From positions 537-64,536 of the forward strand of contig CASEOS010000005.1 of NCBI GenBank assembly GCA_949289635.1: a stretch of DNA of 64,000 nucleotides. The letters are read 5' to 3'. Position 1 is the first letter of the stretch; the number at the start of each line of letters is the position of its first letter. This stretch comes from an uncultured Eubacteriales bacterium (GTDB lineage: Bacteria > Bacillota > Clostridia > TANB77 > CAG-508). Under the pieces are notes generated by a model. The model had not been told where the DNA came from. It did no database searches and saw nothing but the letters and a program-made list of their open reading frames with translations. Positions 6,825 to 30,371 of the stretch are shown here, one piece after another. Position numbers and translations under genes: made by a program.

Positions 6825-6840
6825 TTAGGAGGACAAGTAA

Positions 6841-10228: not shown

Positions 10229-10295
10229 TCTATTTTCCCCCCTTAAGTTTACGGTAAATCACAGATATGCGTTTCTGGTTCTATATATATAAAAG

Positions 10296-12877: not shown

Positions 12878-12993
12878 TATAAATGGTGGTAAAAGTTCAA
12901 AATAAAAAAATACAAAATAAGCTAAAATTATGGAAAAATTTGAAACTTTATGATATAAAATATACTAGAAAAATAGATGAAGAGGTAATGAAA

Positions 12994-14448
12994 ATGGATG
13001 GTGCAATAAAAAGTATAATAGATAGAATGTGGAATAACTTTTGGGAAGGTGGAGTAACAAATCCACTAACAGTAATAGAACAAATAACATACCTTTTATT
13101 TATAAAAGGATTAGATGATATAGAAATAGCACATGAAAAAAATGATGTTATGTTAGGAATAACAAGTAAAAGAATATTTGATAAAGAACATCAAAATTGT
13201 AGATGGAGTAAATTTAAAGATTATCCTGCAGAAAAAATATTTAAGATAATGCAAGAAGAAGTATTTCCTTTTATTAAAAATTTGGGAAAAGACAAAGAAT
13301 CTGCTTATGCAAAATATATGGAAGATGCAATATTTATAATACCAACACCAATTATGTTACAAAAAGTTGTAACTGCAATGGACAAGCTAGAAATGAAAGA
13401 TAAAGACACTAAAGGTGATGTATATGAATATTTGTTATCTAAATTAAGCCAAGCTGGTGTAAATGGGCAATTTAGAACACCAAGACACATTATAAAAATG
13501 ATGGTGGAACTAATGAAACCAACACCAGAAGATATAATAGTAGACCCAGCATGTGGTACAGCAGGATTTTTAGTTGCAGCAGGAGAATATTTAAGAGAAA
13601 ATAAAGGAGATTTATTTTTATCAGAAAATCTAAATGAACATTTTAATAATACAATGTTTTATGGATTTGATATGGATAGAACAATGCTAAGAATTGGAGC
13701 AATGAATTTAATGCAACATGGTATAGAAAATCCTAATATTACATATAAAGATTCACTATCAGAAGATAATGAAGACAATGGGAAATATACATTAGTTTTA
13801 GCGAACCCACCATTTAAAGGTTCGATTGATGCAGAAAGAACATCAAAAGATTTATTAGCAATTACTAAAACTAAAAAAACAGAATTATTATTCTTAACAC
13901 TATTTTTAAGAATATTAAAAATTGGAGGAAGATGTGCTTCAATAGTACCAGATGGTGTATTATTTGGAAGTTCAAATGCTCATAAAGCAATTAGAAAAGA
14001 AATAATAGAAAATCATAAATTAGAAGCAATAATATCAATGCCAAGTGGGGTATTCAAACCTTATGCAGGAGTATCAACAGCAATTATGATATTTACAAAA
14101 ACAACACAAGGTGGAACAGATAAAGTTTGGTTTTATGATATGACAGCAGATGGATTTAGTTTAGATGATCAAAGACAACCTGTAAAAGAAAATGATATTC
14201 CAGATATTATAAAAAGATTTAACAATAGAGAATCAGAAGAAGAACAAAACAGAAAAAGAACAGAAAAATCATTCTTTGTAACAAAAAAGGAAATAGTAGA
14301 AAATGATTATGATTTATCGATTAATAAATATAAAGAAATAGTTATAGAAAAGAAAGAATATGAAAAGCCAGATGTTATTTTAAAAAGAGTAATTGATATG
14401 GAAGATGAAATCCAACAGAAATTGAAAGAGTTGGAGGAAATGATATGA
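12994..14448 (+). CDS. hsdM: type I restriction-modification methyltransferase subunit HsdM
   Basis: Motif I DPACGTAGFL, motif IV NPPF (LANPPFKGS); start chosen at ATG 12994 (RBS GAGG 8 nt upstream; longer ORF from 12883 possible). Confidence 0.85.
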   Translation: MDGAIKSIIDRMWNNFWEGGVTNPLTVIEQITYLLFIKGLDDIEIAHEKNDVMLGITSKRIFDKEHQNCRWSKFKDYPAEKIFKIMQEEVFPFIKNLGKDKESAYAKYMEDAIFIIPTPIMLQKVVTAMDKLEMKDKDTKGDVYEYLLSKLSQAGVNGQFRTPRHIIKMMVELMKPTPEDIIVDPACGTAGFLVAAGEYLRENKGDLFLSENLNEHFNNTMFYGFDMDRTMLRIGAMNLMQHGIENPNITYKDSLSEDNEDNGKYTLVLANPPFKGSIDAERTSKDLLAITKTKKTELLFLTLFLRILKIGGRCASIVPDGVLFGSSNAHKAIRKEIIENHKLEAIISMPSGVFKPYAGVSTAIMIFTKTTQGGTDKVWFYDMTADGFSLDDQRQPVKENDIPDIIKRFNNRESEEEQNRKRTEKSFFVTKKEIVENDYDLSINKYKEIVIEKKEYEKPDVILKRVIDMEDEIQQKLKELEEMI

Positions 14449-15500
14449 TGGAGAAAGTAAGATTAGGAGAATGTGCAACATTTATAAATGGCTATGCATT
14501 TAAACCAATAGATTGGTCAAGAAATGGAATACCTATAATTAGAATCCAAAATTTAACAGGTAGTATGAAGCAATTAAATTATTATAACGGAAAATTAGAT
14601 TCAAAATATATAATTAATAATGGTGATATATTAATTTCTTGGTCTGCTAGTTTGGGTATATTTGAATGGAAAAAAGAAAAGGCATATTTAAATCAACATA
14701 TATTTAAAGTTGAATTTAATAAAAAAAATATAAATAAAAAATATTTTGTATATTTAATAAAGTCAAAAATTAATGAGATGAAAAAGAACACACACGGATC
14801 TACTATGAAACATATAACTAAATCTGACTTTGATAAGATAGAGATATTTTTACCTAATATACAAGAACAGGAAAAAATTTCAAATATATTAGATAAAGTT
14901 CAACAAATAATAGATTTAAGAAAAAGACAAATAGAGGAATTAGATGAATTTATTAAATCTCTATTTATAGAGATGTTTGAAAATAATGATTGTGAAACTA
15001 AAAAATGGCAAGACGTATTTAATACAACAACTGGAAAATTAGACTCAAATGCAATGATAGAAGGTGGAATTTATCCATTTTTTACCTGCGCAAAAGAATC
15101 ATTTAGAATTAATGAGTATGCATTTGATTGTGAAGCGCTTTTATTAGCAGGAAATAATGCAGCAGGAGTTTATGATGTAAAACATTATAAAGGTAAATTT
15201 AATGCATATCAAAGAACCTATGTATTGACTTTAAAGAACGAAAAATGGAAATATGAATTATTTAAATTAGAATTGGAAGAAAAGTTGGATTTTTTAAAAA
15301 GTCAATCGAAAGGTTCAAATACTAGATATTTAACAATGAAGATATTAAATGATTTAACTTTTAAAGTTCCGGATTTAAATTTACAGAATAAATTTGCAGA
15401 ACTTGTAAAGCAAATTAATAAACAGAAATTTATACTAGAAAAAACTTTAAAAGAAACAGAAGAACTACAAGAAAGTTTAATGAATAAATATTTTAATTAG
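14445..15500 (+). CDS. hsdS: type I RM specificity subunit HsdS
   Basis: Overlaps hsdM stop (ATGA coupling); 351 aa with TRD plus conserved coiled-coil-like segments. Confidence 0.75.
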   Translation: MMEKVRLGECATFINGYAFKPIDWSRNGIPIIRIQNLTGSMKQLNYYNGKLDSKYIINNGDILISWSASLGIFEWKKEKAYLNQHIFKVEFNKKNINKKYFVYLIKSKINEMKKNTHGSTMKHITKSDFDKIEIFLPNIQEQEKISNILDKVQQIIDLRKRQIEELDEFIKSLFIEMFENNDCETKKWQDVFNTTTGKLDSNAMIEGGIYPFFTCAKESFRINEYAFDCEALLLAGNNAAGVYDVKHYKGKFNAYQRTYVLTLKNEKWKYELFKLELEEKLDFLKSQSKGSNTRYLTMKILNDLTFKVPDLNLQNKFAELVKQINKQKFILEKTLKETEELQESLMNKYFN

Positions 15501-15508
15501 GAGTAAAA

Positions 15509-16765
15509 ATGATTCAGATTATAACAGAAAACAATTATTTAAGAGAACAAACTAAAAATAATAGTGAATTTAAAGTAAATGGTTTCAAGAATATTGAAGC
15601 TATGGACGAATATGATATTAATATTATTGACTTAAATTCTCAAAATTTATGGTACAATAAGGGAGTAAATCAAGATAGTATTAATGAAATAAATGATTTA
15701 AAACATTTAAAAAATACTATAGAAAATTCTCTAAATTCAAAAATAGTAATAATATTGCCACAAAATTTAAATTATTATTGGAACAAATTTAATAATAAAT
15801 ATATTAATGAAGAACAATTAAAAAATGAAACGAAACTTATAGAAAAGATAATAAATGAAAATATATATTGCTTTCCATTTGACTTATATTATGAAAAAAC
15901 TATAACTAAAATAGGAGACAAAAAAATAAGCTCAGATTTTTGCTTTAGCAAAAAACAAATAGATACTAAATGGACTATATGCAATGTCACAAAAATTTTA
16001 AGTTCAACAAAATCTGATAAGATAAATACTATAAAAGTTAATGATAAAGTTTACATGACTTCATTAAATATAAATGAAAATATTGACTTAATAATTGAAT
16101 TCATGAAACATATAAAAATATATAATGAAAATGAGGAAATTGTGCCTATATGGATTAAGGATATTAATATACTAAATGATATTGAAATTAAGAAACAATT
16201 GAACCAAATAGACGAAGAGATATTGCAATTAGAACAAAATAAAATGCACATAAAAGAGGCAATAAATGAAAATAACAAAATTAAAAGTATATTATATGAG
16301 ACAGATAAAAAGTTACAAAATAAAGTTATAGAAATATTAAATGAAATATTAGATTATTCTGATGAAAATTTTGTGGATGAAATGGAAGAAGATTTTAGAA
16401 TAAAAAAAGAAAATATAACGTTTTTAATTGAAACAAAAGGTTTAAAAAGAAATATTGCTGGAACAGATATTAGTAAGACTTTGAATCATGTATTTGCTTA
16501 TGAAGAAACTATTCAAGATGAAAATAAACAAGAAAATGTAAAAGGTGTTTTTATAGTAGCAACACAAAGAGATAAAAATATATCAGAAAGAGAAGAAACT
16601 CCAGACAGGCAAATTAAAATTGCAGAAAGAAATAATATACTAATTATTAGAACAGAACAGTTATTAGAAATATTTGAAGATTTTCGAAATAAAAAAATAA
16701 ATACAGAAGATATAATTAAGTTACTGACTGAACAAAATGGTGAGTTAAAATATAATAAGGAGTAA
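15509..16765 (+). CDS. uncharacterised 418-aa protein embedded between hsdS and hsdR (possible PD-(D/E)xK-like C-terminal nuclease)
   Basis: Same strand, 8-nt and 3-nt gaps to hsdS and hsdR; central coiled coil; C-terminal D...FLIETKG (D-E-x-K-like); no Walker A. Confidence 0.5.
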   Translation: MIQIITENNYLREQTKNNSEFKVNGFKNIEAMDEYDINIIDLNSQNLWYNKGVNQDSINEINDLKHLKNTIENSLNSKIVIILPQNLNYYWNKFNNKYINEEQLKNETKLIEKIINENIYCFPFDLYYEKTITKIGDKKISSDFCFSKKQIDTKWTICNVTKILSSTKSDKINTIKVNDKVYMTSLNINENIDLIIEFMKHIKIYNENEEIVPIWIKDINILNDIEIKKQLNQIDEEILQLEQNKMHIKEAINENNKIKSILYETDKKLQNKVIEILNEILDYSDENFVDEMEEDFRIKKENITFLIETKGLKRNIAGTDISKTLNHVFAYEETIQDENKQENVKGVFIVATQRDKNISEREETPDRQIKIAERNNILIIRTEQLLEIFEDFRNKKINTEDIIKLLTEQNGELKYNKE

Positions 16766-16768
16766 AAT

Positions 16769-19700
16769 ATGTCAAATTTTGATTTTTTAAAACAAAGTAA
16801 AATATTTAATAATTTTTCAGAAGCATGTTGTGAAGCAGAAAATGGAATAGGATTAAACACAGTAACATGTAGCATATTAAGTAGAAGAGCACTAGAATTA
16901 GCAGTAAAATGGCTATATGCCAATGATAATGATTTAAGAATTCCATACAATGATAATTTATCAGCATTAGTTCATGATATAACATTTAAGAATATAATAG
17001 ATGAAAAATTGTTAAAGCAAATTGAATATGTTATAAAATTAGGAAATTTTGCAGTACATAATAATAATAAAATATCAAGAGAAGAGGCAATTCTTTCTTT
17101 AAGATATTTATATAATTTTACTTGTTGGATAGCATATTGTTATTCTGACAGTTTTGAAGAAAAAGAATTTGATGAAAATATTTTACCTAAACAAACTGTA
17201 AATGTATTAGCAGTAAAAGAAAGAGAAACTTTATATCAAGAATTAGAAGCAAAAGACAAAAAGATAGAAGAAACAAAAAAAGAAAATGAAGAATTAAGAA
17301 AAAAACTAACTCAAACAAGAGAAAATAAAAAGAAAAATTATGCATTTAATGTTAAAGATATATCTGAATACGAAACAAGAAAGAAATATATTGATTTGGA
17401 ATTAAAGTTAGCAGGATGGGATTTTGAAACTAATATACAAGAAGAATTAAAATTACAAGGTATGCCTAATAATCAAAATGTAGGATATGCAGATTATGTA
17501 TTATTTGGCAAAAATGGTTTGCCTCTTGCAGTTGTTGAAGCAAAGAGAACAAGTGTAGATCCAAAAGTTGGACAAAATCAAGCCAAATTATATGCAGATT
17601 GTATTGAGCAAGAATATCATCAAAGACCAGTTATATATTACACAAATGGATTTGAAATATATATGTGGGATGATGAAAATTATCCACCAAGAAAAGTAGC
17701 AGGATTTTACACACAAGATGAATTACAGTTATTAATAAATAGAAGAAGTAGTAAACAAAGTTTAGAGCATATATTTGTAGATGACAAAATAACAAATAGA
17801 GAATATCAGTTAGAAGCAATAAAAAGTGTTTGTGAAACTTTTGAAGAAGGACATAGAAAAGCATTATTAGTAATGGCAACAGGTACAGGAAAAACAAGAA
17901 CAGCTATATCAATAGTTGATGTACTATCTGATAAAGAATGGGTTAAAAATGTATTATTTTTAGCTGATAGAACAGTTTTAGTAAAACAAGCAAAAAATAA
18001 TTTTGTAAAGTTATTGCCTAATATGTCTTGCTGTAATTTATTGAGTACAGTAGATAATCCAGAAGATTCAAGAATTGTATTTTCAACATACCAAACTATG
18101 ATTAATGCAATAGATAGTACAAAAAGTAAAACAGGAAACAAATTATTTACACCAGGACATTTTGATTTAATTATTGTAGATGAAGCTCACAGAAGTATAT
18201 ATAAAAAATATCAAGCTATATTTGAATATTTTGATGGCTTAGTAGTAGGATTAACAGCTACTCCAAGAAATGATGTAGACAGAAATACATATAGATTTTT
18301 TGAAATAGAAAATGATGTACCTACATTTGCATATGAATATGAAAGAGCAGTAAAAGAAGGATATTTAGTAGATTATCATACTATAAAAACAAGTACAGAT
18401 TTTATGGATAGAGGAATTAAATATAATGAATTAAGTGCAGAAGAAAAAGAAGAATATGAAAATACCTTTGCAGATGATGAAGATAATATTCCAGAAGAAA
18501 TAGATGCTGCAGCTATTAATAGTTGGTTATTTAATAGGGATACCATAAAAAAATTGTTGGAACTTTTAATGGAAAAAGGATTAAAAGTAGAAGGAGGAGA
18601 TAAATTAGGAAAAACTATTATATTTGCAAGAAATCACAAACATGCAGAAAGAATAGTAGAAATATTTAATGAATTATATCCAGAGTATAGAGGTGAATTT
18701 GCAAAATTAATAGATAATCAAGTTAAGTATAACGAAAACTTAATAGAACATTTTAGTATAAAAGATGACTTTCCTCAAATTGCAGTATCTGTTGATATGT
18801 TAGATACAGGCGTTGATGTGCCAGAAATATTAAATTTAGTATTTTTTAAACCAGTAAAATCAAAAATAAAATTCTGGCAAATGATAGGTAGAGGAACAAG
18901 ACTTTGTAAAGATTTATTTGGAGTAGGGCAAGATAAAAAAGAATTTTACATATTTGACTATTGTAAGAATTTCGAATTCTTCTCTGAGAATCCAAAAGGT
19001 ATAGAAGCAAACACACAAATAAGTTTGACAGAAAGAATATATGGATATAAGTTAGATTTAATTGTAGAATTACAAAATATAAAATACCAAAGTGATGAGA
19101 AATTTAAAAATTATAGAGAAGAATTGATAGATGAATTTATTGAAGAAATAAATAAACTAAATAAAGAAAGTTTTTTAGTAAAAGCAAAAGTACATTATAT
19201 AGAACAATTTTCTAAGAAAGATAATTGGGTATATATCTCTACAATAGATTTAGCTGATATAAAAGAAAATCTAATTCCATTGTTTATAGCATCAGATGAG
19301 AATGAATCAGCTAAAAGATTTGACAATTTATTGTATCAATTACAAGTAAAAAGAATTAGAACAGAAAAAACTGGTAGATGTGAGAATGCAATAATAGATA
19401 CAGTATCTGAATTAGAAAAACTAGGAACAGTACCACAAGTAAAAGAAAAACAAGAATTGATTTTAAAAGTAGCAGAAACAGATTACTTGAAAGAAGCAGA
19501 TTTTTGGAAAGTAGAAGAAATTAGAAAAGAATTAAGAGATTTAATACAATTTATAGATCCATATAATAGACCGCCTGTATATATTGATATGGAAGATACT
19601 TTAAATGATATTGATGAAGAATATGTATATGTAAGTACAGGAAATAACTTCACAAATTATAGAAAAAAACTAGAAAAATTCTTAACAGGTAATTTAGAAA

Positions 19701-20116
19701 ACAGTATTATATGGAAAATAAGGCATAATATAAGATTAACAGAATTAGAAAAAGAAAATTTAGAAAAAATATTATTTGAAGAATTAGGAAGTAACAAAGA
19801 ATATGCAGAAACATTTGGAGATACAAATGTAATAAAAGCAGTAAGAAATATAGTTGGACTTGATAAAAGCGTTGCAAGTGATATTTTTTACAAATACATA
19901 AATGAAAATAGATTGAACATGAAACAAATACAATTTGTAAAATTACTAGTTGATTATGTTGTGAAAAATGGAACTATAGAAATGGAAAAATTAACAGAAC
20001 AACCTTTTAACACTGTTGGACAAGTATATGAGCTTTTTGGAAATAATGTGGATTTATTTAAAGAGATTCGAGAGGATATTGAAGAAATAAATGAGAATGC
20101 TGAGAAATTGGCATAA
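16769..20116 (+). CDS. hsdR: type I restriction endonuclease subunit HsdR
   Basis: 1115 aa; helicase motif I MATGTGKT, motif II IIVDEAHRS (DEAH). Confidence 0.9.
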   Translation: MSNFDFLKQSKIFNNFSEACCEAENGIGLNTVTCSILSRRALELAVKWLYANDNDLRIPYNDNLSALVHDITFKNIIDEKLLKQIEYVIKLGNFAVHNNNKISREEAILSLRYLYNFTCWIAYCYSDSFEEKEFDENILPKQTVNVLAVKERETLYQELEAKDKKIEETKKENEELRKKLTQTRENKKKNYAFNVKDISEYETRKKYIDLELKLAGWDFETNIQEELKLQGMPNNQNVGYADYVLFGKNGLPLAVVEAKRTSVDPKVGQNQAKLYADCIEQEYHQRPVIYYTNGFEIYMWDDENYPPRKVAGFYTQDELQLLINRRSSKQSLEHIFVDDKITNREYQLEAIKSVCETFEEGHRKALLVMATGTGKTRTAISIVDVLSDKEWVKNVLFLADRTVLVKQAKNNFVKLLPNMSCCNLLSTVDNPEDSRIVFSTYQTMINAIDSTKSKTGNKLFTPGHFDLIIVDEAHRSIYKKYQAIFEYFDGLVVGLTATPRNDVDRNTYRFFEIENDVPTFAYEYERAVKEGYLVDYHTIKTSTDFMDRGIKYNELSAEEKEEYENTFADDEDNIPEEIDAAAINSWLFNRDTIKKLLELLMEKGLKVEGGDKLGKTIIFARNHKHAERIVEIFNELYPEYRGEFAKLIDNQVKYNENLIEHFSIKDDFPQIAVSVDMLDTGVDVPEILNLVFFKPVKSKIKFWQMIGRGTRLCKDLFGVGQDKKEFYIFDYCKNFEFFSENPKGIEANTQISLTERIYGYKLDLIVELQNIKYQSDEKFKNYREELIDEFIEEINKLNKESFLVKAKVHYIEQFSKKDNWVYISTIDLADIKENLIPLFIASDENESAKRFDNLLYQLQVKRIRTEKTGRCENAIIDTVSELEKLGTVPQVKEKQELILKVAETDYLKEADFWKVEEIRKELRDLIQFIDPYNRPPVYIDMEDTLNDIDEEYVYVSTGNNFTNYRKKLEKFLTGNLENSIIWKIRHNIRLTELEKENLEKILFEELGSNKEYAETFGDTNVIKAVRNIVGLDKSVASDIFYKYINENRLNMKQIQFVKLLVDYVVKNGTIEMEKLTEQPFNTVGQVYELFGNNVDLFKEIREDIEEINENAEKLA

Positions 20117-20134
20117 ATAAGAGGAGGAATATAA

Positions 20135-20833
20135 ATGGCAAGAGGAGTAATTTATTGTATGACGACTATAGTGGATGGACTTGTAAAAATAGGAAAGACA
20201 AGGAAAGAAAATTTCGAACAACGTATGTATAATTTGGAGCATAATGGTTATGTTCAAATTGTAGGATTAAAAAGAAGATTTGCTATAGAAGTAGAAGATT
20301 ATGATGAAAAAGAAACGCTTATACAAGAGATTTTTAGAAAAAGCAATATAGAAAATACAGAATTATTTGCTGTAAATGTAGATTTAGTTGTTCAATTACT
20401 TTCATCACTAGAGGGAACACAAATTTTTCCAAAGTCAATAAGCAAAGAAGAATCTTTTAATACAGCGACAGATGAGATTCAAGAAAACATACATAATCCT
20501 AATAAATTTTTAGTTCCTGATGGAGAATATTATATTTCTCAAAAAAGTAATGGGAATCAAACTGCAAAAGCAACTATGAAAGTTGATAATGGTAAATTCA
20601 TTGTATTAAAAGGTAGTAGATGTCTTCCTTGTGATAAAGATTGGATGCCAGAAACAAGAAGAACGGCAATAATAGAAAATGGAATATTGATGAAAGATGT
20701 TGAATGTAATTCTCCTAGTACAGCAGGTTGGGTTGTTCTTGGAAGTGCTAATAATGGATGGTTAACCTGGAAAACTAAAGATGGTAAATCAATCAATGTA
20801 TTCAGAAATAACAAGATAACAAGTAATGAATAA
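20135..20833 (+). CDS. T5orf172 (GIY-YIG-like) / DUF4357 domain protein
   Basis: N-terminal GVIYCMTT...GLVKIGKT...R..NL pattern of T5orf172/MUG113 domain; frequently found next to type I RM loci. Confidence 0.55.
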   Translation: MARGVIYCMTTIVDGLVKIGKTRKENFEQRMYNLEHNGYVQIVGLKRRFAIEVEDYDEKETLIQEIFRKSNIENTELFAVNVDLVVQLLSSLEGTQIFPKSISKEESFNTATDEIQENIHNPNKFLVPDGEYYISQKSNGNQTAKATMKVDNGKFIVLKGSRCLPCDKDWMPETRRTAIIENGILMKDVECNSPSTAGWVVLGSANNGWLTWKTKDGKSINVFRNNKITSNE

Positions 20834-21026
20834 ATTTAGCGTGAAGAAGGATAAAATTATGAAAATTAAATGTTTAGTTTGTGGAGATATTATAGAATCA
20901 AAAAGTGTACACGATCTAGTATGTTGTAAATGTGAATCATGCTATATTGATGGTGGAAATTACTATGCACATATAGGTGCAAAAGATTTTGATAAAGTTG
21001 TTGAAGTTAAATTAGATTTAAAATAA
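20826..21026 (+). CDS. small zinc-ribbon protein
   Basis: 66 aa, CxxC...CCKCESC Cys pairs; start overlaps upstream stop. Confidence 0.4.
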   Translation: MNKFSVKKDKIMKIKCLVCGDIIESKSVHDLVCCKCESCYIDGGNYYAHIGAKDFDKVVEVKLDLK

Positions 21027-21106
21027 ACTAAAGAAAGCAAAATAATTAATATACAAATAGTTGTTTAATTATTTTGCTTTTTTATGTCTAAGTGAGGAGT
21101 AATTAA

Positions 21107-23053
21107 ATGAAAAGTATAGGTAAAAAAATAATAAAGATAATAAATGGACTTAATATTATTAATATTAGCATTTTATTAATATATAATTTTGAAAGTACAA
21201 AACATTTTATTAAAACTATAATTGTAGCGTTATTAGATGAAAATATTGCAATAAAAGTAAATGGCATTTATATTATGATACTGCCAACTTTAAAAAATAT
21301 AATATATTTATATATTATTATATTTTTTATTATAGCTACATTTAAAATAATATATTATTATTCGAAAAGGTATTTACAAAGAAAAAAAGTAGAAAAAGCA
21401 GATGAAATTAATAGAAATTTATTTGAGTATTTAAATAATGATGATAAAAAGTGTTTTGTAATTACAGGTGATTGGGGAGTGGGAAAAACATATACAGTAG
21501 ATGAATTTTTTAAAAATTATTTTAAATATGAAAGAAGAGAAGTATATAGAATTTCTTGTTTTGGAATGAAGGATAGGAAAGATGTATTACAGGAATTAAA
21601 AAATATTTTTGAAAAGCAAGATAAGTCTTTTAGAAAATATATGATTAATATTTTGAATAAAATACCTATTATTGGAGGATTACTTGAAGATGCTCTTAAA
21701 AGTGATTATGAATTTAAAGATTTAAAAGAAAAATCAATTTTTGTTTTTGATGATCTAGAAAGAATAAATATCCCCAATTATTCAAGTAGATATAATAGAG
21801 ATTGGTATAGAGTAAAAAACATACGACAAAATCCTTTTGAAAAGATACCATTAAACGAGTTATATAAAGAATTTAAAGAAATTGAAAGTTCTTTTAAAAA
21901 TTTTGATAATTCATTAGAAAAAATAAAAGAAGATATTGATATAGAAAAATTTAATGTTATTACAGGTATTATAAATGAATTAATAGAACGATATAATATG
22001 AAAGTAATTGTTATATGTAATAATGAAGAAATTGATAAAAATTTTTTTAATGATATATTTGAGTGTAAAATTGAAAGTGTTTTTTATAAAATTAATACTA
22101 AATATAAAATTACATTAGATTTGGCAACAAGAAATTTAAATAATAAATTATCCATAGAGGACGGTATTAAAGAAAAAGTAAAAGTTTTTTTTGAAACTAA
22201 TGCAAGTTGTATTGATAAAATATGGTATAAAAATAATGTAAAAAATGTAAGAGTATTATCTAAAACTATAAGTGCTTTTGTAGAAATTGTTGAGAATTAT
22301 AAAATTGAAGAGAAATATTACAAAGATTTATTTTTTACTATATTCATTACTAATATAGCTAATTATACAGGAGAAATATCATATTTAGAAGATATTCAAA
22401 TAGGAGAATTGATAAAAGCTTTTTATGAAAAACATATGTTAATGCTAGGAAATTATAGTAATATGTTGAAAAAAGGAATATTGTATAGTATTTCTTCTGA
22501 AGTAGATACATATGATATAAGATGGATGGGCTTAAATTTAGGTATTGCTTGGAACATGGGGATTCATAGATACGAAGGAATACAACAAGAGATTGAAAAA
22601 TATGATAGTTACAATTATGATGAAGAAAGAAAAATATTTTGTAAAAATGAAGATATAGATTTAGAAAATAATAATATATATAAATTTGACGATTTAGTTT
22701 ATTTGTTAAAAATAAATGTGGATAATGAAGAAAAAGTAAATAGTATATTTAAGATTATAAAAGAAGGAAAAATTGACTATATAAGTCATACATCTTTTAC
22801 ATATGGTGGTAGAGCATTTGGAAATATAAATAATGAGAAAGATGCAAGCAAAAAAGAAATTATATTTGCAACATTGCAATCCTATAAAATTGATGATACC
22901 ATATTGACAAAAATTTTTGAAATATTAGAAAATATTATAGATGCAAACGAAATAGATAATTTTTCAGAAAGAAAGTCAAGTAATTTATTGAAAACGGTAG
23001 AAGACAAGTATATAAACTTTTTAAATAATAAAAGAAAAATTGAAAAGAAATAA
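21107..23053 (+). CDS. KAP-family P-loop NTPase with N-terminal transmembrane segments
   Basis: 648 aa; TM helices at N-terminus; Walker A GDWGVGKTY, Walker B IFVFDDLER. Confidence 0.6.
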   Translation: MKSIGKKIIKIINGLNIINISILLIYNFESTKHFIKTIIVALLDENIAIKVNGIYIMILPTLKNIIYLYIIIFFIIATFKIIYYYSKRYLQRKKVEKADEINRNLFEYLNNDDKKCFVITGDWGVGKTYTVDEFFKNYFKYERREVYRISCFGMKDRKDVLQELKNIFEKQDKSFRKYMINILNKIPIIGGLLEDALKSDYEFKDLKEKSIFVFDDLERINIPNYSSRYNRDWYRVKNIRQNPFEKIPLNELYKEFKEIESSFKNFDNSLEKIKEDIDIEKFNVITGIINELIERYNMKVIVICNNEEIDKNFFNDIFECKIESVFYKINTKYKITLDLATRNLNNKLSIEDGIKEKVKVFFETNASCIDKIWYKNNVKNVRVLSKTISAFVEIVENYKIEEKYYKDLFFTIFITNIANYTGEISYLEDIQIGELIKAFYEKHMLMLGNYSNMLKKGILYSISSEVDTYDIRWMGLNLGIAWNMGIHRYEGIQQEIEKYDSYNYDEERKIFCKNEDIDLENNNIYKFDDLVYLLKINVDNEEKVNSIFKIIKEGKIDYISHTSFTYGGRAFGNINNEKDASKKEIIFATLQSYKIDDTILTKIFEILENIIDANEIDNFSERKSSNLLKTVEDKYINFLNNKRKIEKK

Positions 23054-23409
23054 AGATGCAGATTAACACATAGTAAATGTGTTGATACAAACAACTTATT
23101 ATTTTAAGATAAAATAAAGTAAATTCAATAAAAGAGGAGAAAAATTATACTACTCTTTTATTCTTTTAAACATTTGAAGATTAAACTCAAAACCATCACA
23201 AAAGTCATTCCTATAATAATTTTTATTCCAATAAACAATATAATCTAAAATAAATGTAAACTATGGAATAATTAACGAATTTATGATATATTAATTGCAA
23301 CAAAAAATTGCTTGGGAGGAAAACAGTAAAGGAACAATTAAAAGGAGTTATATTTTATGAATGTAGAATTTATTAACGATGTTATACCAATGATGGATTA
23401 AGATTACCT

Positions 23410-24208
23410 ATGATACATTTTGAAAGTGATAAAAAAGATATATGTGTAATATTTATACATGGTATGTGCCAAACAATATTAGATAATTATTTTGCTATCG
23501 TATGTGGAGAACTTTTATCTAGAAATAGTATAGGTTTTCTTTATGAACATAATAGAGGTCATTCTATAGAGAATGATATATTAATGAAAGATGGCTCATA
23601 TAAGAGATGTGGATGTATGTACGAAATTTTTGAAGATTGCATTTTAGATATCAATTTAGCAATTGAAAAAGCAAAAGAATTAGGATATAAAAGATATATC
23701 TTAATGGGGCATAGTTATGGATGTAATAAATTGATTTATTACTATTATAAAAAACATCCTAATATTTTGGGATTAGTGCTTGCAAGTGCACCAGACATGA
23801 TAGGGTTACAATTACTTCGACAATCTGATTATAAGAAACTTATTAATGAAGCAAAAGACAATATAGATAAAGGAAATCCAACAAAAATACTTAGTAACTT
23901 AATTGAGAATTATATGTATATGAGTTCACAAACATATTATAATTGGTTTAAAAAAGATTCAAATCTTGATAATTTACCAGTTATGGATGAATAATTGGTT
24001 TCAATTTGAAAGTATAGATGTTCCAATATTAACATTTTCAGGATCAGAAGAAACAGATAATTATTTACATTTAGATTTGCTAAAGGATAAAGCAAAAAAT
24101 TGTAATAATTTTAAATATAAAATCATAGATCAAACAAATCATTTTTATGTGGGTAAAGAAAAAGAAGTAAGTTTTTTAGTTTTGGAATGGATAAATAATT
24201 TTAGATAG
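23410..24208 (+). pseudogene. alpha/beta-hydrolase gene split by a frameshift (ORFs 23410-23994 and 23966-24208)
   Basis: HGMCQT and nucleophile-elbow GHSYG motifs in first ORF; second ORF continues in +1 frame with 29-nt overlap. Confidence 0.5.
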
Positions 24209-24230
24209 AAGTTAAGAGAGGAAGTTTTAA

Positions 24231-24860
24231 ATGAATAATAATTATATTATAATAGGCGATAGTATTACATATGGAATTGGAGATTTCGAAAGTGGTGGAT
24301 GGGCTGCAATGTTTAAAAACTATATTGTAAAAAAGGATGATACAAAAGAATGCAGTAATTATGTTCATGTTGCGGGATTTCCTGGAGCTACAAGCACTGA
24401 TATTTTATCCAAAATTGATAGTATATTGAAATTATTTAAAAATGAAGAATTTACAAATATAGTAATACTTTCTATTGGAGTCAATGATACACAAGAATTT
24501 AATGGTAGCCAAAAGAATAGTATTGAACAATACAAAATTAATATAGAAAAAATTGCTAAATGTGTTATAGATAATGGTTGTTATATGATAATTTTAGGAT
24601 TAACAAGAATAGAAAGCGATGAGAAATTTTTGTGGAAACCCAATAAATATTATGACAATGAAATAATATCAGAATATGATAGAGATTTAGAGTTAATTTT
24701 AAATTATGATGTGGAATTAGAAAAATTATGTAAGAATAACAAAATTAAATATATTGCAATGCAAGAAGTATTAAAAAAGGAAGATTTTATTGATGGATTA
24801 CATCCAAACCATAATGGACATAAGAAAATTTGCAATTATATTATTGAAAATATAGAGTAA
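24231..24860 (+). CDS. SGNH/GDSL-family hydrolase
   Basis: GDSITYG block I and DGLHPN block V motifs. Confidence 0.7.
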   Translation: MNNNYIIIGDSITYGIGDFESGGWAAMFKNYIVKKDDTKECSNYVHVAGFPGATSTDILSKIDSILKLFKNEEFTNIVILSIGVNDTQEFNGSQKNSIEQYKINIEKIAKCVIDNGCYMIILGLTRIESDEKFLWKPNKYYDNEIISEYDRDLELILNYDVELEKLCKNNKIKYIAMQEVLKKEDFIDGLHPNHNGHKKICNYIIENIE

Positions 24861-24969
24861 GAGAAAGAAAAAATGTTATTTCTAGAAAGTGTCCATAATA
24901 ATGGAGTACATCTTAGAATATTAGAATAATTAAGAAAATAATTGAAAATTAAGTGGAGGTAATTATGCA

Positions 24970-25731
24970 ATGGAAAATAAAAAAGTTGTTTTAATAACTG
25001 GTGGAACAAGTGGAATTGGATTTGGAACAATAGAATATTTACTGGAGCAAGGAAATTATGAAATTATTTCAGTTTCAAGAGGAAATAAAAATATAGCTCT
25101 TGCTAAAGAAAAACTAGGTGAAAAAGCTAATCAAGTTATATTTTTACAAGGAGATGTTAGCAAAGAAGAAGATTGTAGGAAAATATATAATGAAGTAGAA
25201 AGTAAATATGGAAAGTTAGATGGATTAGTAAATTCAGCTGGAATAATAAAATTAGGTGGAATTGAAGAACAAACTTTAGAAGAGTGGAATAATGCAATAA
25301 ATATAAATTTAACTGCAATATTCTTATTATCAAAAACATTATTGCCATTATTGAAAAAAGGAAGAAATACATCAGTCGTAAATATATCTTCTATGTCATC
25401 AGAAAGGGCAGGAGGATCAATAGCTTATTGTGCAAGTAAAGCTGGGGTTGATATGTTAACTAAATATATGGGACAAGAACTCGGAAAATATAATATAAGA
25501 GTTAATAGTGTAAATCCAGCAGCAGTATATACAAATATTTATGTAGCAAGCGGAGACTACACACAAGAAGGTTATGATAAATGGTCAGAAGAAAAAGCAC
25601 CATTATATCCATTAGGAAGAATTGGAGATGCCAAAAAAGATTTAGCCCCAACAATAGAATTTTTATTGTCAGATAAATCATTATGGACGACAGGAGCGAT
25701 ATATTTAGTAGATGGTGGAAAAAGTATTTAG
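24970..25731 (+). CDS. SDR-family oxidoreductase
   Basis: TGGTSGIG cofactor motif, catalytic YCASK, 253 aa. Confidence 0.75.
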   Translation: MENKKVVLITGGTSGIGFGTIEYLLEQGNYEIISVSRGNKNIALAKEKLGEKANQVIFLQGDVSKEEDCRKIYNEVESKYGKLDGLVNSAGIIKLGGIEEQTLEEWNNAININLTAIFLLSKTLLPLLKKGRNTSVVNISSMSSERAGGSIAYCASKAGVDMLTKYMGQELGKYNIRVNSVNPAAVYTNIYVASGDYTQEGYDKWSEEKAPLYPLGRIGDAKKDLAPTIEFLLSDKSLWTTGAIYLVDGGKSI

Positions 25732-25898
25732 TATAGTACATCATTATTTTTATGAATGACTTGTAACAATGAATCAGCAGTTAGAGAAAATTTAGTATAA
25801 ACAAATGAATTTACTATAATTGCAAGATAAAAAGAATAAAAAGCAGTGAAAACTGTTATAAGTCAAGTTGCATTAAAATGTAAGGAAACGGTGAAACA

Positions 25899-26543
25899 AT
25901 GCAAAGTAAAAAAGAAGTGAAATTAAAAATAATAGATTTAGAAGATATAAAATCAATGGAACGATATCTTAATGAAGAACAAATGCAATTCTTAAAAAAT
26001 ATATATGAAATTGAATATGATGAGAAAACAACAATAAGGCAAATACTAAATTTTTTAATTAATGGACTAAAAGAATATTATATTAATTATAATAGTGTAG
26101 AAGAAATATTTAAAGACTATTTTTTAAAAAGTAGATTTAATATAATTATAAATAAAAAATATGTACGAATTTATGATTTGGACATACCAGTATACATGAT
26201 TTTAAATTATATACAAAATCAAGAAATAGACCTGTCTTTTATATTGGAGCCTGGTGGTGGATTTGATGCGTTAGAGCAATATAATGGAATAAAATATATA
26301 ATGAAAACGCATGAACAGGGAAGACATAATAACCCACACATACATGTATGCTATTCAGGAGAGGAAATTATTGTTAATATTATAAATGGACAAGTAATAG
26401 AAGGAAAAATGAACTCTAAAAAGAAAAAAGAAGCAATTCAAAGAATTATAAAAAATAAGGAAGAATTATTACTTTTGTGGAATACAAGAACAGATGGTAC
26501 TCCATATGAGGTAAGTGAAGAAGACTTTAATTTAAAAGTGTAA
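25899..26543 (+). CDS. hypothetical protein with C-terminal DUF4160-like domain
   Basis: HNNPHIHVCYSGEE...WN pattern typical of DUF4160. Confidence 0.4.
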   Translation: MQSKKEVKLKIIDLEDIKSMERYLNEEQMQFLKNIYEIEYDEKTTIRQILNFLINGLKEYYINYNSVEEIFKDYFLKSRFNIIINKKYVRIYDLDIPVYMILNYIQNQEIDLSFILEPGGGFDALEQYNGIKYIMKTHEQGRHNNPHIHVCYSGEEIIVNIINGQVIEGKMNSKKKKEAIQRIIKNKEELLLLWNTRTDGTPYEVSEEDFNLKV

Positions 26544-26800
26544 AGAATAATTAAAAAGATACTATGCCAATGAAGATAGAAGGACACCTGAGAATGGTAA
26601 TAAATATCGTATGCTATAAATATGTTGAGTTATTTCTAGCATGCGATATTTAATTTTATAAAAATCAACTAGGTAGCTTATTATGATTTAAATAATATTT
26701 GAAACAAAAATGAATAAAAAGTTCAAAAATAGGAAAAATATTATTAAAATTAGTTTACTTTTTTATAAAAATAGCATATAATATATAAAGAGAGGTGTAA

Positions 26801-28087
26801 GTGATGCTAGTTGAATTTAGTGTTAAAAATTTCATGTCATTTAAAGATAAAGTAACCTTTAGTATGGAAGCAGCAACAGGAACAGAAAATGAAGAAAATA
26901 TAATAAGTATACCCAATATAAATGAAAGAATTTTAAAGAGCACAGCAATATATGGAGCAAATGCATCAGGAAAAACAAATTTAATAAATGCATTTACAGC
27001 AGCAATATTAATGATAAGAAAATCAAATAATAGACAGGTTGGAGAAAAATTAACAGAAATGGAACCATTTGCATTTGATGAAAAAACTAAATTAGAACCA
27101 TGTGAATTTGAATTTGTTTTTTATGCAAAAGGAATGAAATATATATATGGATTTATAGCAGATAAAGAAAAAGTATATGAAGAATATTTATATCAGTATT
27201 TTACAGCTAAGCCTACAAGAATATTTGAAAGAACTAATGTAAATGAATATAAATTCCTACAGGCAGATGAAGGAAAATTAAATGCTATAAAAACACAAAA
27301 TATAGATAATAAATTGTTTTTAGCTACAGCAACAACATGGAATTATGATAAGACAAAAGAACCATATTTGTGGTTTGCAAAAAATATAGACACATATACT
27401 GGTGGAATGTTATTAAACGATTTTGTTGTAGAGTCATATAACAACAAAGATGAAGGGGAAGAACTAAAAAAATTTGCATTAAAATTATTAAACGAAGCAG
27501 ACATTGTAATAAAAGACTTTAGTGTAGAAATCGAAGAACGTGATGTAGATAGTAATATGATAATGCTGTTAAAAAACTTTAATATTCCTTCACAAATATT
27601 GCCACAAAAACAAAGAGATGTAAAAATAAGAATGACACATGAAGTTATTAATGATAACGGCGATATGAAAAGTTATGAATTAAACTTTAATAATGAGTCT
27701 TCAGGAACACAAATTCTATTTTCATTTGCACCAATATTAAAAGATGTTTTTGAGAATGGAAAAATATTAGTAATAGATGAAATTGAAAGAAGTTTGCATC
27801 CTAATTTAGTAGAAATGATTATTAAATTCTTTCATAACCCACAAATTAATAAAGGAAATGCACAGTTAATATTTAATACACATGATACAAATTTATTATC
27901 TTTAGATATATTTAGAAGAGATCAGATATGGTTTGCAGAAAAAGATCCACAGAAAGGGGCTACTGTTTTATATCCTCTTGATGACTTCTCAGTTAGAAAA
28001 AATGAGAATATACAAAAAGGATATTTAAATGGAAGATATGGAGCAATTCCTTTTGTAGCTATGGGTAATAGCTTATGGGAAGATTAG
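26801..28087 (+). CDS. AAA_21/ABC-type ATPase (OLD/AbiLi-like)
   Basis: Walker A GANASGKTN, Walker B-like LVIDEIERSLHP; translationally coupled to downstream RloB-like gene. Confidence 0.65.
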   Translation: MMLVEFSVKNFMSFKDKVTFSMEAATGTENEENIISIPNINERILKSTAIYGANASGKTNLINAFTAAILMIRKSNNRQVGEKLTEMEPFAFDEKTKLEPCEFEFVFYAKGMKYIYGFIADKEKVYEEYLYQYFTAKPTRIFERTNVNEYKFLQADEGKLNAIKTQNIDNKLFLATATTWNYDKTKEPYLWFAKNIDTYTGGMLLNDFVVESYNNKDEGEELKKFALKLLNEADIVIKDFSVEIEERDVDSNMIMLLKNFNIPSQILPQKQRDVKIRMTHEVINDNGDMKSYELNFNNESSGTQILFSFAPILKDVFENGKILVIDEIERSLHPNLVEMIIKFFHNPQINKGNAQLIFNTHDTNLLSLDIFRRDQIWFAEKDPQKGATVLYPLDDFSVRKNENIQKGYLNGRYGAIPFVAMGNSLWED

Positions 28088-28701
28088 AAGGATTTAAACA
28101 AAGAGGTAGAAACCGACAAAGTAGGCAACGAAACCCTATTATAGTAATAGGATGTGAAGGTGCAAACAAAACAGAAGAGATTTACTTTAGAAACTTTAAT
28201 AGTAGAAAATGTATTATAAAATTTTCTACAGGAAATAGCACAGATCCAGTTGGAATTGTTAATGATTTAATAAAATTTATAGATAATGAAATTGGGAGAG
28301 AAGATGGAGACAAATATTATGTGGTGTTAGATACGGACGTAAATCAAGATAAACAAAGTCAGATTGATAAAGCGAAAGCATTAGCGATAAAAAATGGAGT
28401 TGAATTTATAACTTCAACTCCAACGTTTGAATATTGGTACATGTTACATTTTGAATATACAACGAAGACATACCATTCAAGTGAGGAAGTTCAAAATGAT
28501 ATAAAAGATAAAATAAAAGGCTATACAAAAAGTATGAATACATATCCTGTTTTAAGAGACAAGACAGATAATGCCATAAAAAATGCTAGAAAAGTTGAAA
28601 AACATCATTTAGATTTAGGACAAGCATTAGATAATGAAAATTGTAATCCTTATACAGCAGCATATAAAGTTGTAGAAGAATTAATGAAAAGAAATAATTG
28701 A
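28075..28701 (+). CDS. RloB-family (Toprim-like) protein, AbiLii-like
   Basis: N-terminal IIVIGCEGANKTEEIYF matches RloB signature; 13-nt overlap with upstream ATPase. Confidence 0.6.
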   Translation: MGRLEGFKQRGRNRQSRQRNPIIVIGCEGANKTEEIYFRNFNSRKCIIKFSTGNSTDPVGIVNDLIKFIDNEIGREDGDKYYVVLDTDVNQDKQSQIDKAKALAIKNGVEFITSTPTFEYWYMLHFEYTTKTYHSSEEVQNDIKDKIKGYTKSMNTYPVLRDKTDNAIKNARKVEKHHLDLGQALDNENCNPYTAAYKVVEELMKRNN

Positions 28702-28830
28702 TACAGATAAAAAGCAAAATATGAAAGTAATTTTAAAATTACAAGAATATTTTGTTTTTTATATTTATTGACAAGTTTCGACAAAAAAATCAAAAGAGAT
28801 ATGTTATAAAAAATTAAGGGGACAAAATAT

Positions 28831-29202
28831 ATGGACTATATAATAATAGAAAAATTGAAAAAATTAAGAAAAAGTAAAAAGATCACACAAGAACAGTTAG
28901 CTGAAAAATTAGATATAAGCCGTTCTAAAGTTTCTAGTTGGGAAACAAATCGAAGAGATATGAGTATAACAGAAGCAATAAGATTAGCTAATATATATGA
29001 GGTTAGTTTAGATAATCTGTTCGAAATAAAAAAAATTACAGAAGAAGAATATGTGAAAATTTCTGATAAATTTTTAAAAGGTACAAACATATCTCTTGAA
29101 GAAAAAGTTAAAATAATAGAATTAATTAGAGAAACATTAAAGAAGAATAATATTGACGAATTCTACGAAATTTACAAAATGACACAAAATGCGACAAAAT
29201 AG
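28831..29202 (+). CDS. XRE-family HTH regulator
   Basis: ITQEQLAEKLDISRSKVSSWETNRR HTH. Confidence 0.65.
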   Translation: MDYIIIEKLKKLRKSKKITQEQLAEKLDISRSKVSSWETNRRDMSITEAIRLANIYEVSLDNLFEIKKITEEEYVKISDKFLKGTNISLEEKVKIIELIRETLKKNNIDEFYEIYKMTQNATK

Positions 29203-29296
29203 ATTTAAAATATCTATTTTGTCGCATTTTGGCTATGTAAAATTAGAAAGAAAATTGGTATAATATTTAAGTAGATATATAAGGAGGGATATAGTT

Positions 29297-29716
29297 GTGC
29301 AAGAACAAACAAATAAAATTGGGCACTTAAATATGATACAAGGAATAATTTCGAGAATGGGAAATAACGCATTTTCTTTAAAACAATGGGCGGTTGGAAT
29401 AATGATTGCTATATATGCTTTTGCAGGGGAAAATTCTCATAAGGCTGTAATAGTAACAATAATTCCATTAATAGTTTTTTGGTTTTTAGATTCATATTAT
29501 TTAATGATTGAACGTAAATATAGATGTTTATATGATGAAGTAAGAAGAAAAAAGGAAAAAAATATTGATTTTAATATGAATACTAATTTGATAAATGTGA
29601 AAATGAAGAATATAAATAATTATTGCTTGATTAAAGTGGCATTCTCAAAAACAATATGGCCTTTTTATATAGTATGTATTGCAACTACATTAATAATTTA
29701 TTTTATAAAATTTTAG
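29297..29716 (+). CDS. small 3-TM membrane protein (SLATT-like candidate effector), GTG start
   Basis: 139 aa; amphipathic N-term then TM hairpin (WAVGIMIAIYAFAG / AVIVTIIPLIVFWFL) and C-terminal TM; ends 10 nt before TIR-like gene. Confidence 0.35.
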   Translation: MQEQTNKIGHLNMIQGIISRMGNNAFSLKQWAVGIMIAIYAFAGENSHKAVIVTIIPLIVFWFLDSYYLMIERKYRCLYDEVRRKKEKNIDFNMNTNLINVKMKNINNYCLIKVAFSKTIWPFYIVCIATTLIIYFIKF

Positions 29717-29725
29717 GAGGTAATT

Positions 29726-30217
29726 ATGAAAAGACAAGTATTTTATAGTTTTCATTATAAAAATGACTGTTGGAGAACGAGTCAAGTTAGAAATATAGGA
29801 GCTATTGAGGGGAATAAGCCTGTTTCAGAAAACGAATGGGAAGAAGTAAAAAGAAAAGGTGACGAGAATATAAAAAATTGGATAAATGATCAGCTGAAAT
29901 ATAGAAGTTGTACAATAGTTTTAATAGGTGAAGAAACGTCAGAGAGAAAATGGGTAAAATATGAAATAAAAAAGAGTTGGGAAGATGGAAAAGGTATTTT
30001 AGGTATTTATATACATAATTTAAAAAATCAAAATGGAGAAAGAAGTAGGAAGGGTAAAAATCCGTTTGAACAATTTACTTTAAAAGGTGGAGAAAAGTTA
30101 TCAAATAAAATAAAAGTATATAATCCACCATATGAATTTGATAGTAAAGCAAATTATAACTATATTGCTGAAAATATAGAGGATTGGATAGAAACAGCAA
30201 TTAATGATAGAAAATAA
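29726..30217 (+). CDS. TIR-like (DUF1863 / ThsB-like) domain protein
   Basis: VFYSFHYKND...TIVLIGEETSERKWVKYEIKKSWEDGKGILGIYIHN matches DUF1863 TIR-like pattern. Confidence 0.5.
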   Translation: MKRQVFYSFHYKNDCWRTSQVRNIGAIEGNKPVSENEWEEVKRKGDENIKNWINDQLKYRSCTIVLIGEETSERKWVKYEIKKSWEDGKGILGIYIHNLKNQNGERSRKGKNPFEQFTLKGGEKLSNKIKVYNPPYEFDSKANYNYIAENIEDWIETAINDRK

Positions 30218-30236
30218 AAAGATAGGGGGGATAAAT

Positions 30237-30371
30237 ATGTACACTACAGGTGAAAAACCAGGAAAAGGTGAATACTATTGTACAAAATGTGGACAAAATG
30301 TAACATTAGATGATAATACTGATACTTTACCACCATGTCCAAAGTGTTCTAATACTACTTATAGAAAATAA
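30237..30371 (+). CDS. 44-aa zinc-ribbon small protein (absent from ORF track: below size cut-off)
   Basis: MYTTGEKPGKGEYYCTKCGQNVTLDDNTDTLPPCPKCSNTTYRK; RBS GGGGGG 7 nt upstream; followed by intrinsic terminator. Confidence 0.4.
   Translation: MYTTGEKPGKGEYYCTKCGQNVTLDDNTDTLPPCPKCSNTTYRK

Follow-up and report, generated by a model that had tools for sequence, protein, structure and literature searches.

The window, a stretch of 64,000 nucleotides (nt) from an uncultured Eubacteriales bacterium (contig CASEOS010000005.1 of assembly GCA_949289635.1), carries three adjacent open reading frames (ORFs), ORF-A, ORF-B and ORF-C, behind the hsdR gene of a type I restriction-modification (RM) system. 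The three genes are probably independent single-gene units, neighbours within one cargo hotspot that belongs to an integrative element from a low-GC gut Clostridia bacterium, and they do not constitute a single module. The G+C content of the window is approximately 25%, and its nearest genomic relatives are metagenome-assembled genomes of gut or rumen Clostridia. ORF-A belongs to the candidate family PDC-S57, ORF-B to the Pfam family DUF7695, and ORF-C appears to be a KAP-like P-loop NTPase. The region is ordinary but well-stocked defence-island cargo; what is new is confined to the promiscuous placement of DUF7695 at the tail of many nuclease-type genes.

An earlier reading of the DNA, here called the original prediction, placed three same-strand ORFs at this site, the first directly 3′ of hsdR, described them as defence-island cargo, and suggested that they were possibly one module. 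The arrangement was borne out: ORF-A is separated by 18 nt from the hsdR stop codon and is preceded by an AGGAGG ribosome-binding site, and, with the start of ORF-B corrected as described below, the gaps are 25 nt between ORF-A and ORF-B and 80 nt between ORF-B and ORF-C (Table 1). The island lies within an integrase-bearing element that also holds GmrSD, type I RM, AbiL and ThsB-TIR genes, in agreement with its description as cargo. The module is refuted because the genes occur independently of one another and without conserved linkage, the criterion that had been set beforehand.

The linkage was examined from the side of each gene. Sixty genomic loci encoding ORF-A relatives were collected, and neighbours were counted in 54 analysed loci, including the window. 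A tblastn search detected ORF-C in 0 of the 60 ORF-A loci. ORF-A has ORF-B behind it in 3 of the 54: the window, L011 (ORF-A 99% identical), and L020 (71% identical in ORF-A and 49% in ORF-B). The ORF-C sample comprises 10 distinct contexts, including the window, with homologs that are 31–72% identical; both ORF-A and ORF-B are absent from all nine other contexts. A hidden Markov model (HMM) of the ORF-C family, run over the genes flanking DUF7695, recognized members nowhere except in the window; among these loci, the co-occurrence of the KAP NTPase with the zinc-ribbon gene that had been put forward as a check is confined to the window.

Four related loci, which share hsdR and ORF-A as a conserved left flank, delimit the hotspot. 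The DNA of hsdR and ORF-A in the window is 94–96% identical to that of L011, L012, and L013. Homology to the window ends at position 21050 in L011, where ORF-B is followed by a sigma-factor-like gene; at 20870 in L012, which continues with a 235-residue membrane protein and a 668-residue reverse transcriptase (RT)-like protein containing a YVDD motif; and at about 20819 in L013, where non-coding DNA precedes a second type I hsdM/hsdS pair. The L012 sequence is 95.8% identical to the window over 16746–20870 and 96.8% identical again over 30451–32534, and between these flanks it contains 3 kb of unrelated genes as opposed to 9.6 kb in the window. Because L012 regains identity from 30451, ORF-B and ORF-C lie in a variable cargo segment. 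The arrangement resembles that of other defence-island cargo hotspots in integrative elements, with hsdR and ORF-A on the left and an AAA_14/DUF4143 gene on the right enclosing the exchanged defence genes. The variants L011, L012, and L013, together with the contexts of the relatives, show three separately exchangeable units, and therefore caution against taking a tightly packed, same-strand group of defence-island genes for a single system.

The alternative that a nuclease (ORF-A), a zinc-ribbon adaptor (ORF-B) and a membrane NTPase (ORF-C) cooperate in one defence module draws on the compact, adjacent placement of the genes on one strand and on the lack of a clear ORF-C promoter, which makes expression by read-through possible. 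It is nevertheless extremely improbable, since all three genes occur together only in the window, near-identical loci with hsdR and ORF-A are devoid of ORF-B, ORF-C, or both, ORF-C relatives are found on their own behind other restriction genes, and a strong predicted terminator separates ORF-B from ORF-C. The latter is a hairpin with a 19-base-pair AT-rich stem and a U-run, which has a minimum free energy of −18.8 kcal/mol (z=−4.5; 0 of 200 shuffled sequences were as stable) and is predicted to be the intrinsic terminator of ORF-B. Given this hairpin, a shared transcript is not required. A simple terminator scan demands three G-C pairs and overlooked such AT-rich hairpins. A similar hairpin 5′ of the ORF-C homolog in L007 is a generic AAAGCAAAA...TTTTGCTTTTT terminator, and that homolog has its own TTGACA-17-TGnTAAAAT promoter located 3′ of the terminator.

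Several points weigh against three independent units of the kinds named above. The context samples are metagenomic and partly redundant, and the ORF-C sample is small. The pair of ORF-A and ORF-B recurs in L020 despite its divergence, and some functional tie between the two is thus possible. Because no promoter-like site is present between the ORF-B terminator and the ribosome-binding site of ORF-C, the latter may depend on read-through from the hsdR–ORF-A–ORF-B transcript and would then be coupled to these genes physically rather than evolutionarily. A Foldseek comparison of ORF-A to the PDB returned nothing below E=0.2. The window ORF-C has no match to the Pfam KAP_NTPase model (PF07693) even at E≤1, and its Foldseek matches in the PDB reflect only generic AAA+/ORC/Cdc6/RFC similarity, with a TM-score of at most 0.26 normalized on the query.

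Table 1. Positions of the three genes and of other features in the window
Feature	Position	Strand	Basis or content
tRNA-Met	4136–4211		
Tyrosine integrase	4428–5627	−	
GmrSD_N type IV restriction gene	7324–9048	−	
Three direct repeats	10276–10586		about 76 nt each, spacing 114–121 nt
Phage-type replisome organizer and DnaC-like genes	10999–12295		
Gene for 418-residue protein	15509–16765	+	between hsdS and hsdR
hsdR, type I RM	16769–20116	+	Pfam ResIII, HSDR_N, EcoEI_R_C; PADLOC REase_I E=3e-175
ORF-A, 232 residues	20135–20833	+	T5orf172 + DUF4357/RAMA-like; PADLOC candidate PDC-S57
ORF-B, DUF7695, 55 residues	20859–21026 (corrected from 20826, 66 residues)	+	Pfam DUF7695 E=1.6e-16
Variable cargo segment, 9.6 kb	20871–30450		bounded by conserved flanks in comparison with L012
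AT-rich hairpin and U-run, predicted intrinsic terminator of ORF-B	21031–21085	+	folding compared to shuffled sequences
ORF-C, 648 residues, putative KAP-like P-loop NTPase	21107–23053	+	Walker motifs, hydropathy, AlphaFold2 model
Hairpin and U-rich tract 3′ of ORF-C, terminator-like	23127–23170	+	fold of 23054–23180, z=−2.7; read by eye
Alpha/beta-hydrolase (DUF1749/Hydrolase_4)	23410–24208	+	overlapping ORFs of 194 and 80 residues
AbiLi/AbiLii pair	26801–28701	+	AAA_21 ATPase (PADLOC AbiLi, E=1e-98) and RloB-like protein
HTH_3 regulator, weakly DUF3278-like protein, ThsB-type TIR	28831–30217	+	Pfam ThsB_TIR, E=1e-28
OLE RNA	52908–53525	+	Rfam 340 bits, model positions 1–616 of 616

ORF-A, a member of the candidate family PDC-S57

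ORF-A combines a predicted T5orf172 (GIY-YIG-like) domain with a DUF4357/RAMA-like domain and is a member of the known candidate family PDC-S57. Its residues 1–226 match positions 1–227 of the 229 in the PADLOC model (E=5.7e-97), so that the PADLOC check proposed earlier gave a full-length assignment for this gene. The protein can be divided into an N-terminal T5orf172/GIY-YIG-like domain (residues ~1–100), a linker helix, and a C-terminal DUF4357/RAMA-like domain (residues ~130–225). The original prediction of a T5orf172/DUF4357 protein is upheld for both parts, by different routes. Residues 182–219 match Pfam DUF4357 directly with 50.2 bits (cut-off 38.4), and residues 174–226 match RAMA weakly, below the cut-off (E=2e-4). 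The window protein has no direct match to T5orf172 (PF10544); the superfamily member MUG113 is its sole match of this type and falls below the cut-off (E=0.004). However, precomputed annotations place PF10544, along with PF14267 (DUF4357), on most of 120 listed ORF-A relatives (of 1186 clusters), one of which is 92% identical. The AlphaFold2 model of ORF-A (predicted local distance difference test, pLDDT, 83) has 12 Foldseek matches with E≤1e-3 in the BFVD database, several of them T5 Orf172 or GIY-YIG proteins, and the best local fit of the N-terminal domain has a root-mean-square deviation of 1.8 Å over 86 columns. Residues Y7, K18-I19-G20, R30 and E76 and the C-terminal motif NNGWxxWK are invariant among 27 sequences, all of which are at least 58% identical, giving the alignment little power. 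The Tyr, Arg, and Glu may be catalytic-type residues.

T5orf172-DUF4357 proteins had been described as recurrent type I RM neighbours, and this holds: an hsdR-like gene is located at most two genes away from ORF-A relatives in about 14 of the 54 loci, and lies directly 5′ in the closest ones (L011, L012, L013, L015, L016, and L020). More distant relatives occur in varied contexts, often with no adjacent RM system. The likeness to PDC-S57 extends over the full-length model match, the two-domain architecture and the association with type I (m6A) RM, with no structural difference; PDC-S57 is itself a candidate family, and PDC systems are putative defences that were picked out as genes lying inside RM, BREX, and DISARM systems (bioRxiv 10.1101/2024.01.29.577857). 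RAMA domains are fused to nucleases including T5orf172, mostly in restriction endonucleases from RM systems that modify N6-adenine, and discrimination of N6-methyladenine (m6A) was predicted for them from domain architectures (Iyer, Zhang, Aravind 2015; PMC4738411). DUF4357 also has GmrSD, GIY-YIG, and T5orf172 domains as fusion partners in one study (PMC4619093), and McrB homologs in another (PMC11090510).

We propose that ORF-A is co-transcribed with hsdR. Its DUF4357/RAMA-like domain may read the adenine-methylation state of DNA and thereby aim the N-terminal GIY-YIG-type nuclease at wrongly patterned DNA, in which case ORF-A would provide a second restriction activity alongside the type I system that writes m6A. 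ORF-A also matches a PHROG family of homing endonucleases weakly (E=1.9e-4), which allows for a different role, that of a selfish homing-type T5orf172 endonuclease marking and promoting the recombination boundary of the cargo hotspot. T5orf172 homing endonucleases act at genetic-exchange boundaries in phages (PMC10448857), and the synteny breakpoints at 20819, 20870, and 21050 are all located right behind ORF-A. Nevertheless, we regard the homing role as very doubtful, because ORF-A is fused to a DUF4357/RAMA-like domain typical of restriction enzymes (PMC4738411, PMC4619093), occupies an operon position behind hsdR in all of the closest relatives, and belongs to a family captured as the RM-embedded candidate PDC-S57. 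As a putative restriction factor, ORF-A offers a clonable candidate: a PDC-S57 nuclease and predicted m6A reader beside an m6A-writing type I system.

ORF-B and the DUF7695 family

ORF-B is a clear member of Pfam DUF7695 (PF24749), which it matches with 60.2 bits (cut-off 25), and the same model is present on all 111 clusters of ORF-B homologs. Nearly all of 29 aligned DUF7695 proteins start with MKIKCL(I/V)CGDIIESK. Because the homologs begin with MKIKCL, the start of ORF-B is most likely the ATG at 20859, which is preceded by an AAGGA site and yields a protein of 55 residues that does not overlap with ORF-A. The description of ORF-B as a Cys-rich, zinc-ribbon-like mini-protein stands, and its length of 66 residues and overlapping start do not. 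The alignment has invariant positions at C8, I12, E13, K15, and H18 and near-invariant ones at C5, C23, and C28; the motif is CxxC ... H ... CxCxxC. No function has been described for this family, which no paper mentions.

The context pattern of DUF7695 is new here. It was derived from about 160 loci, 120 of them non-redundant. Of 62 non-redundant metagenome contexts, 53 have the gene 5′ of DUF7695 on the same strand, and in 40 this gene is no more than 60 nt away; a same-strand gene follows at such a short distance in just 15 of 61. The tight upstream partners number 50, each of at least 150 residues, and 32 of them are from nuclease or helicase families. The most frequent is the SLFN-g3/DUF2075 helicase (14 contexts), followed by the YhcG PDDEXK nuclease (6), a weakly DUF5677-like protein (4), RE_AlwI and a small phage GmrSD_N protein (3 each), PDC-S57 and GmrSD (2 each), and a ResIII helicase, an AAA_11/12 plus DUF2726 protein, and a DUF5655 protein (1 each). 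The remaining partners are of phage or plasmid type (ParA-like, primase, terminase/portal-like, PHP, metallophosphatase). The nuclease or helicase genes that DUF7695 follows belong to at least seven unrelated families. This nuclease bias is a raw count, and defence islands are nuclease-rich anyway.

ORF-B behaves as a small portable unit that is apparently untied to ORF-A or ORF-C, because the homology of the window to loci with unrelated upstream genes begins at its ribosome-binding site (~20845) and in several ends at the hairpin. In L071, L148, L154, L157, and L212, this homology extends through the hairpin to ~21083. ORF-B may therewith travel as a unit of approximately 240 base pairs comprising the ribosome-binding site, the ORF, and, in some of the loci, a terminator of its own, and it would borrow the transcription of whichever gene is upstream. 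Our best guess for ORF-B is a zinc-ribbon accessory of general use that binds nucleic acids or a host factor.

The same counts bear on two further readings. One is that ORF-A and ORF-B form a two-gene unit, in which, more broadly, DUF7695 is a portable accessory modulating the nuclease in front of it, for instance by restraint, licensing, or assisted folding. The adjacency kept in L011 and in diverged L020, the tight spacing to upstream rather than downstream genes, and the share of nucleases and helicases among the upstream partners are all consistent with such a unit. However, 51 of the 54 ORF-A loci lack ORF-B, including L012 and L013, the ORF-A of which is 97–98% identical to that of the window. 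It is also unlikely that one mini-protein, conserved at 70–98%, specifically binds seven unrelated folds, and distant DUF7695 homologs in phage contigs adjoin ParA-like, primase, terminase, and phosphatase genes. With nucleases abundant in defence islands regardless, we consider the two-gene unit doubtful. The second is that the DUF7695 cassette (ribosome-binding site, zinc-ribbon ORF of 55–62 residues, and sometimes a terminator) serves as a generic modulator of unrelated nuclease or helicase immune genes, namely DUF2075/Schlafen-like helicases, RE_AlwI, YhcG, GmrSD, ResIII, and T5orf172-DUF4357. It would act, for example, as a safety catch or licensing factor via a partner common to all of them (DNA ends or a host factor, for instance). 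This idea is a long shot; if it is true, the phage-borne cousins of DUF7695 are candidate counter-defence mimics. We know of no universal small accessory common to restriction-type defences. Whichever role applies to the portable ORF-B, DUF7695 is a clonable candidate as a highly conserved mini-protein that recurs behind many different nucleases.

Two candidate interpretations of the DUF7695 loci were rejected. The hairpin behind ORF-B is not an attC-like or recombination site, and is instead an ordinary terminator conserved with ORF-B, kept in only 13 of 42 close DUF7695 homologs. The ATPase of approximately 650 residues that is common 5′ of DUF7695 is not a relative of ORF-C: it is SLFN-g3/DUF2075 and has no BLAST or HMM similarity to ORF-C. 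In L079, L148, L154, and L164, the DUF2075/Schlafen-type helicases 5′ of DUF7695 differ in their N-terminal domains, one of which is GIY-YIG-like, and share the C-terminal end VAE(D/N)SE-Y(R/K)YE just 5′ of the DUF7695 gene.

ORF-C and its genomic contexts

ORF-C is, to judge from its motifs, a diverged member of the KAP-like class. Two hydrophobic segments (residues 7–26 and 53–86), kept in at least 13 of 17 aligned relatives, precede the Walker A motif GDWGVGKT (121–128), and the Walker B motif FVFDDLER (212–219) has its two aspartates at 215–216. Residues G121, W123, G124, G126, K127, F212, F214, D215, E218, and R219 are invariant in the family. A Walker A of the form GxxGxGK[ST] combined with a Walker B of the form hhhhDD-x-[DE]R is reportedly typical of KAP NTPases, as attributed to Aravind and colleagues in 2004. 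The AlphaFold2 model (pLDDT 75) is composed of N-terminal helices, a P-loop core with an insert (222–294), and an all-helical C-terminal half. The insert after Walker B is hydrophilic and was modelled as low-confidence or long-helix structure. The C-terminal region (residues ~330–648, about 320 residues) has no Pfam match.

The N-terminal hydrophobic helices and the P-loop named in the original prediction are therefore present. The Pfam KAP_NTPase match did not come from the window protein itself, and was found in 5 of the 17 relatives (best E=5.4e-9). The only Pfam match of ORF-C is AAA_22, which is found in all 17 relatives. A PDB sequence search with the ORF-C profile gave chance-level matches only. 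The word-indexed search retrieved 20 relatives, and the profile search 111 clusters (at 50% identity) with E<1e-30 and 1140 with E<1e-3. In PADLOC, ORF-C matches PDC-S49, a candidate family of approximately 620 residues, partially, in the P-loop region (E=1.2e-15), as do 16 of the 17 relatives (best E=1e-20). The best stretch of ORF-C, residues 100–223, corresponds to positions 8–147 of the 624 in the model. Because the best stretch covers no more than this and the PDC-S49 model begins after the ORF-C membrane segment, ORF-C may be regarded as at most a distant transmembrane-anchored relative of PDC-S49.

The closest functional precedent is EF_KAP of E. faecalis, described in a 2025 preprint (PMC12632615), which is made up of a pair of N-terminal transmembrane helices, a KAP NTPase domain, and a 322-residue region without a known domain. 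EF_KAP protects against phage without abortive infection but no longer does so with a Walker B DD>AA mutation, and three more gut KAP proteins are likewise protective (PMC12632615). ORF-C is likened to EF_KAP by its architecture: the two N-terminal helices, the NTPase with Walker A and a DD-containing Walker B, and the domain-less region of approximately 320 residues. Like defence proteins of the EF_KAP type, it is a single gene in a mobile defence island of gut Firmicutes. It is missed by the Pfam KAP model, which recognizes some of its relatives. Classical KAP proteins have their transmembrane helices inside the NTPase domain, whereas those of ORF-C are N-terminal and a hydrophilic insert follows Walker B. 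We propose that ORF-C works alone as a KAP-like NTPase anchored in the membrane, similar to those recently found to block phages. Its two N-terminal helices would tether it to the membrane, binding of a phage component may trigger NTP hydrolysis at the Walker A/B site, and the helical C-terminal half may execute or transmit the block.

Restriction genes are located one to three genes 5′ of ORF-C relatives, on the same strand, in 7 of the 10 contexts, the window among them. Apart from the window, ORF-C homologs follow GmrSD_N (L001), a type IIG methyltransferase–restriction endonuclease adjoining a relaxase (L006), Dcm with HNH and Mrr (L007), or a methyltransferase–specificity set with GmrSD_N and a gene for ~195 residues (L008/L009 and L231), or lie near an Mrr gene (L233). 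In the other contexts, the homolog is beside HU with UvrD and SIR2 downstream (L002–L005), after Hypoth_Ymh (L010), or before HicAB (L228); the strand is shared in all of these places. The alternative that ORF-C is non-immune and serves as a membrane NTPase in the transfer, exclusion, or maintenance of the mobile element accords with several homologs in elements with relaxase, TnpV, or replication modules. The classical KAP protein PifA is borne by the F plasmid, and phage exclusion is reportedly not its main role (quoted in PMC12632615). The upstream restriction genes, together with toxin–antitoxin or SIR2 genes near others, the partial match to the defence candidate PDC-S49, and the phage protection by proteins of the same architecture (PMC12632615) make this alternative unlikely. 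The preferred phage-blocking role makes ORF-C a clonable candidate from a diverged membrane-anchored KAP-like NTPase family of about 110 clusters (50% identity, E<1e-30) with a phage-blocking architecture.

L008 (3544–9893) and L231 (2163–8395) have a common order of N6_Mtase/Methylase_S, GmrSD_N, a ~195-residue protein, and the ORF-C homolog. Their GmrSD_N proteins are 57% identical, and the ~195-residue proteins are 31% identical with an RN(V/K)LAHE (Rx4H, HEPN-like) motif. The ORF-C homologs of L008 and L231 are 31% and 64% identical to the window protein, respectively. This order, absent from the window, may represent an arrangement conserved within one part of the ORF-C family.

The surrounding element

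The tRNA-Met gene adjoins the tyrosine integrase, and this site is likely to be the left end of the integrative element. A second copy of the tRNA-Met 3′ end, which would mark a right-hand attachment (att) site, was not found within the window. The element also encodes a GmrSD_N type IV restriction protein, and three direct repeats, which look like origin iterons, are positioned 5′ of the phage-type replisome organizer and DnaC-like genes. A megablast search with positions 12500–24000 gave no match among plasmids and phages.

The slot between hsdS and hsdR varies, containing three different genes (272, 90, and 250 residues) in L012 and none in L013. In the window it is occupied by the gene for a 418-residue protein, which has no match in Pfam, NCBIfam, or PHROG and only a weak match to PADLOC DpdH (E=2e-3). 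It is a defence candidate by guilt-by-embedding.

The cargo segment contains ORF-B, ORF-C, hydrolase, SGNH, SDR, DUF4160, AbiLi/AbiLii, HTH, and ThsB-TIR genes. The alpha/beta-hydrolase is seemingly split into two overlapping ORFs and may be a frameshift or pseudogene. The ThsB-type TIR gene is a lone one, with no ThsA seen nearby. In L012, the membrane protein and RT-like protein that take the ORF-B/ORF-C slot (6815–9564) could be a defence RT pair. Outside the cargo segment, the window contains a full-length OLE (ornate, large, extremophilic) RNA, and the stretch encoding it has a homologous counterpart in L020.

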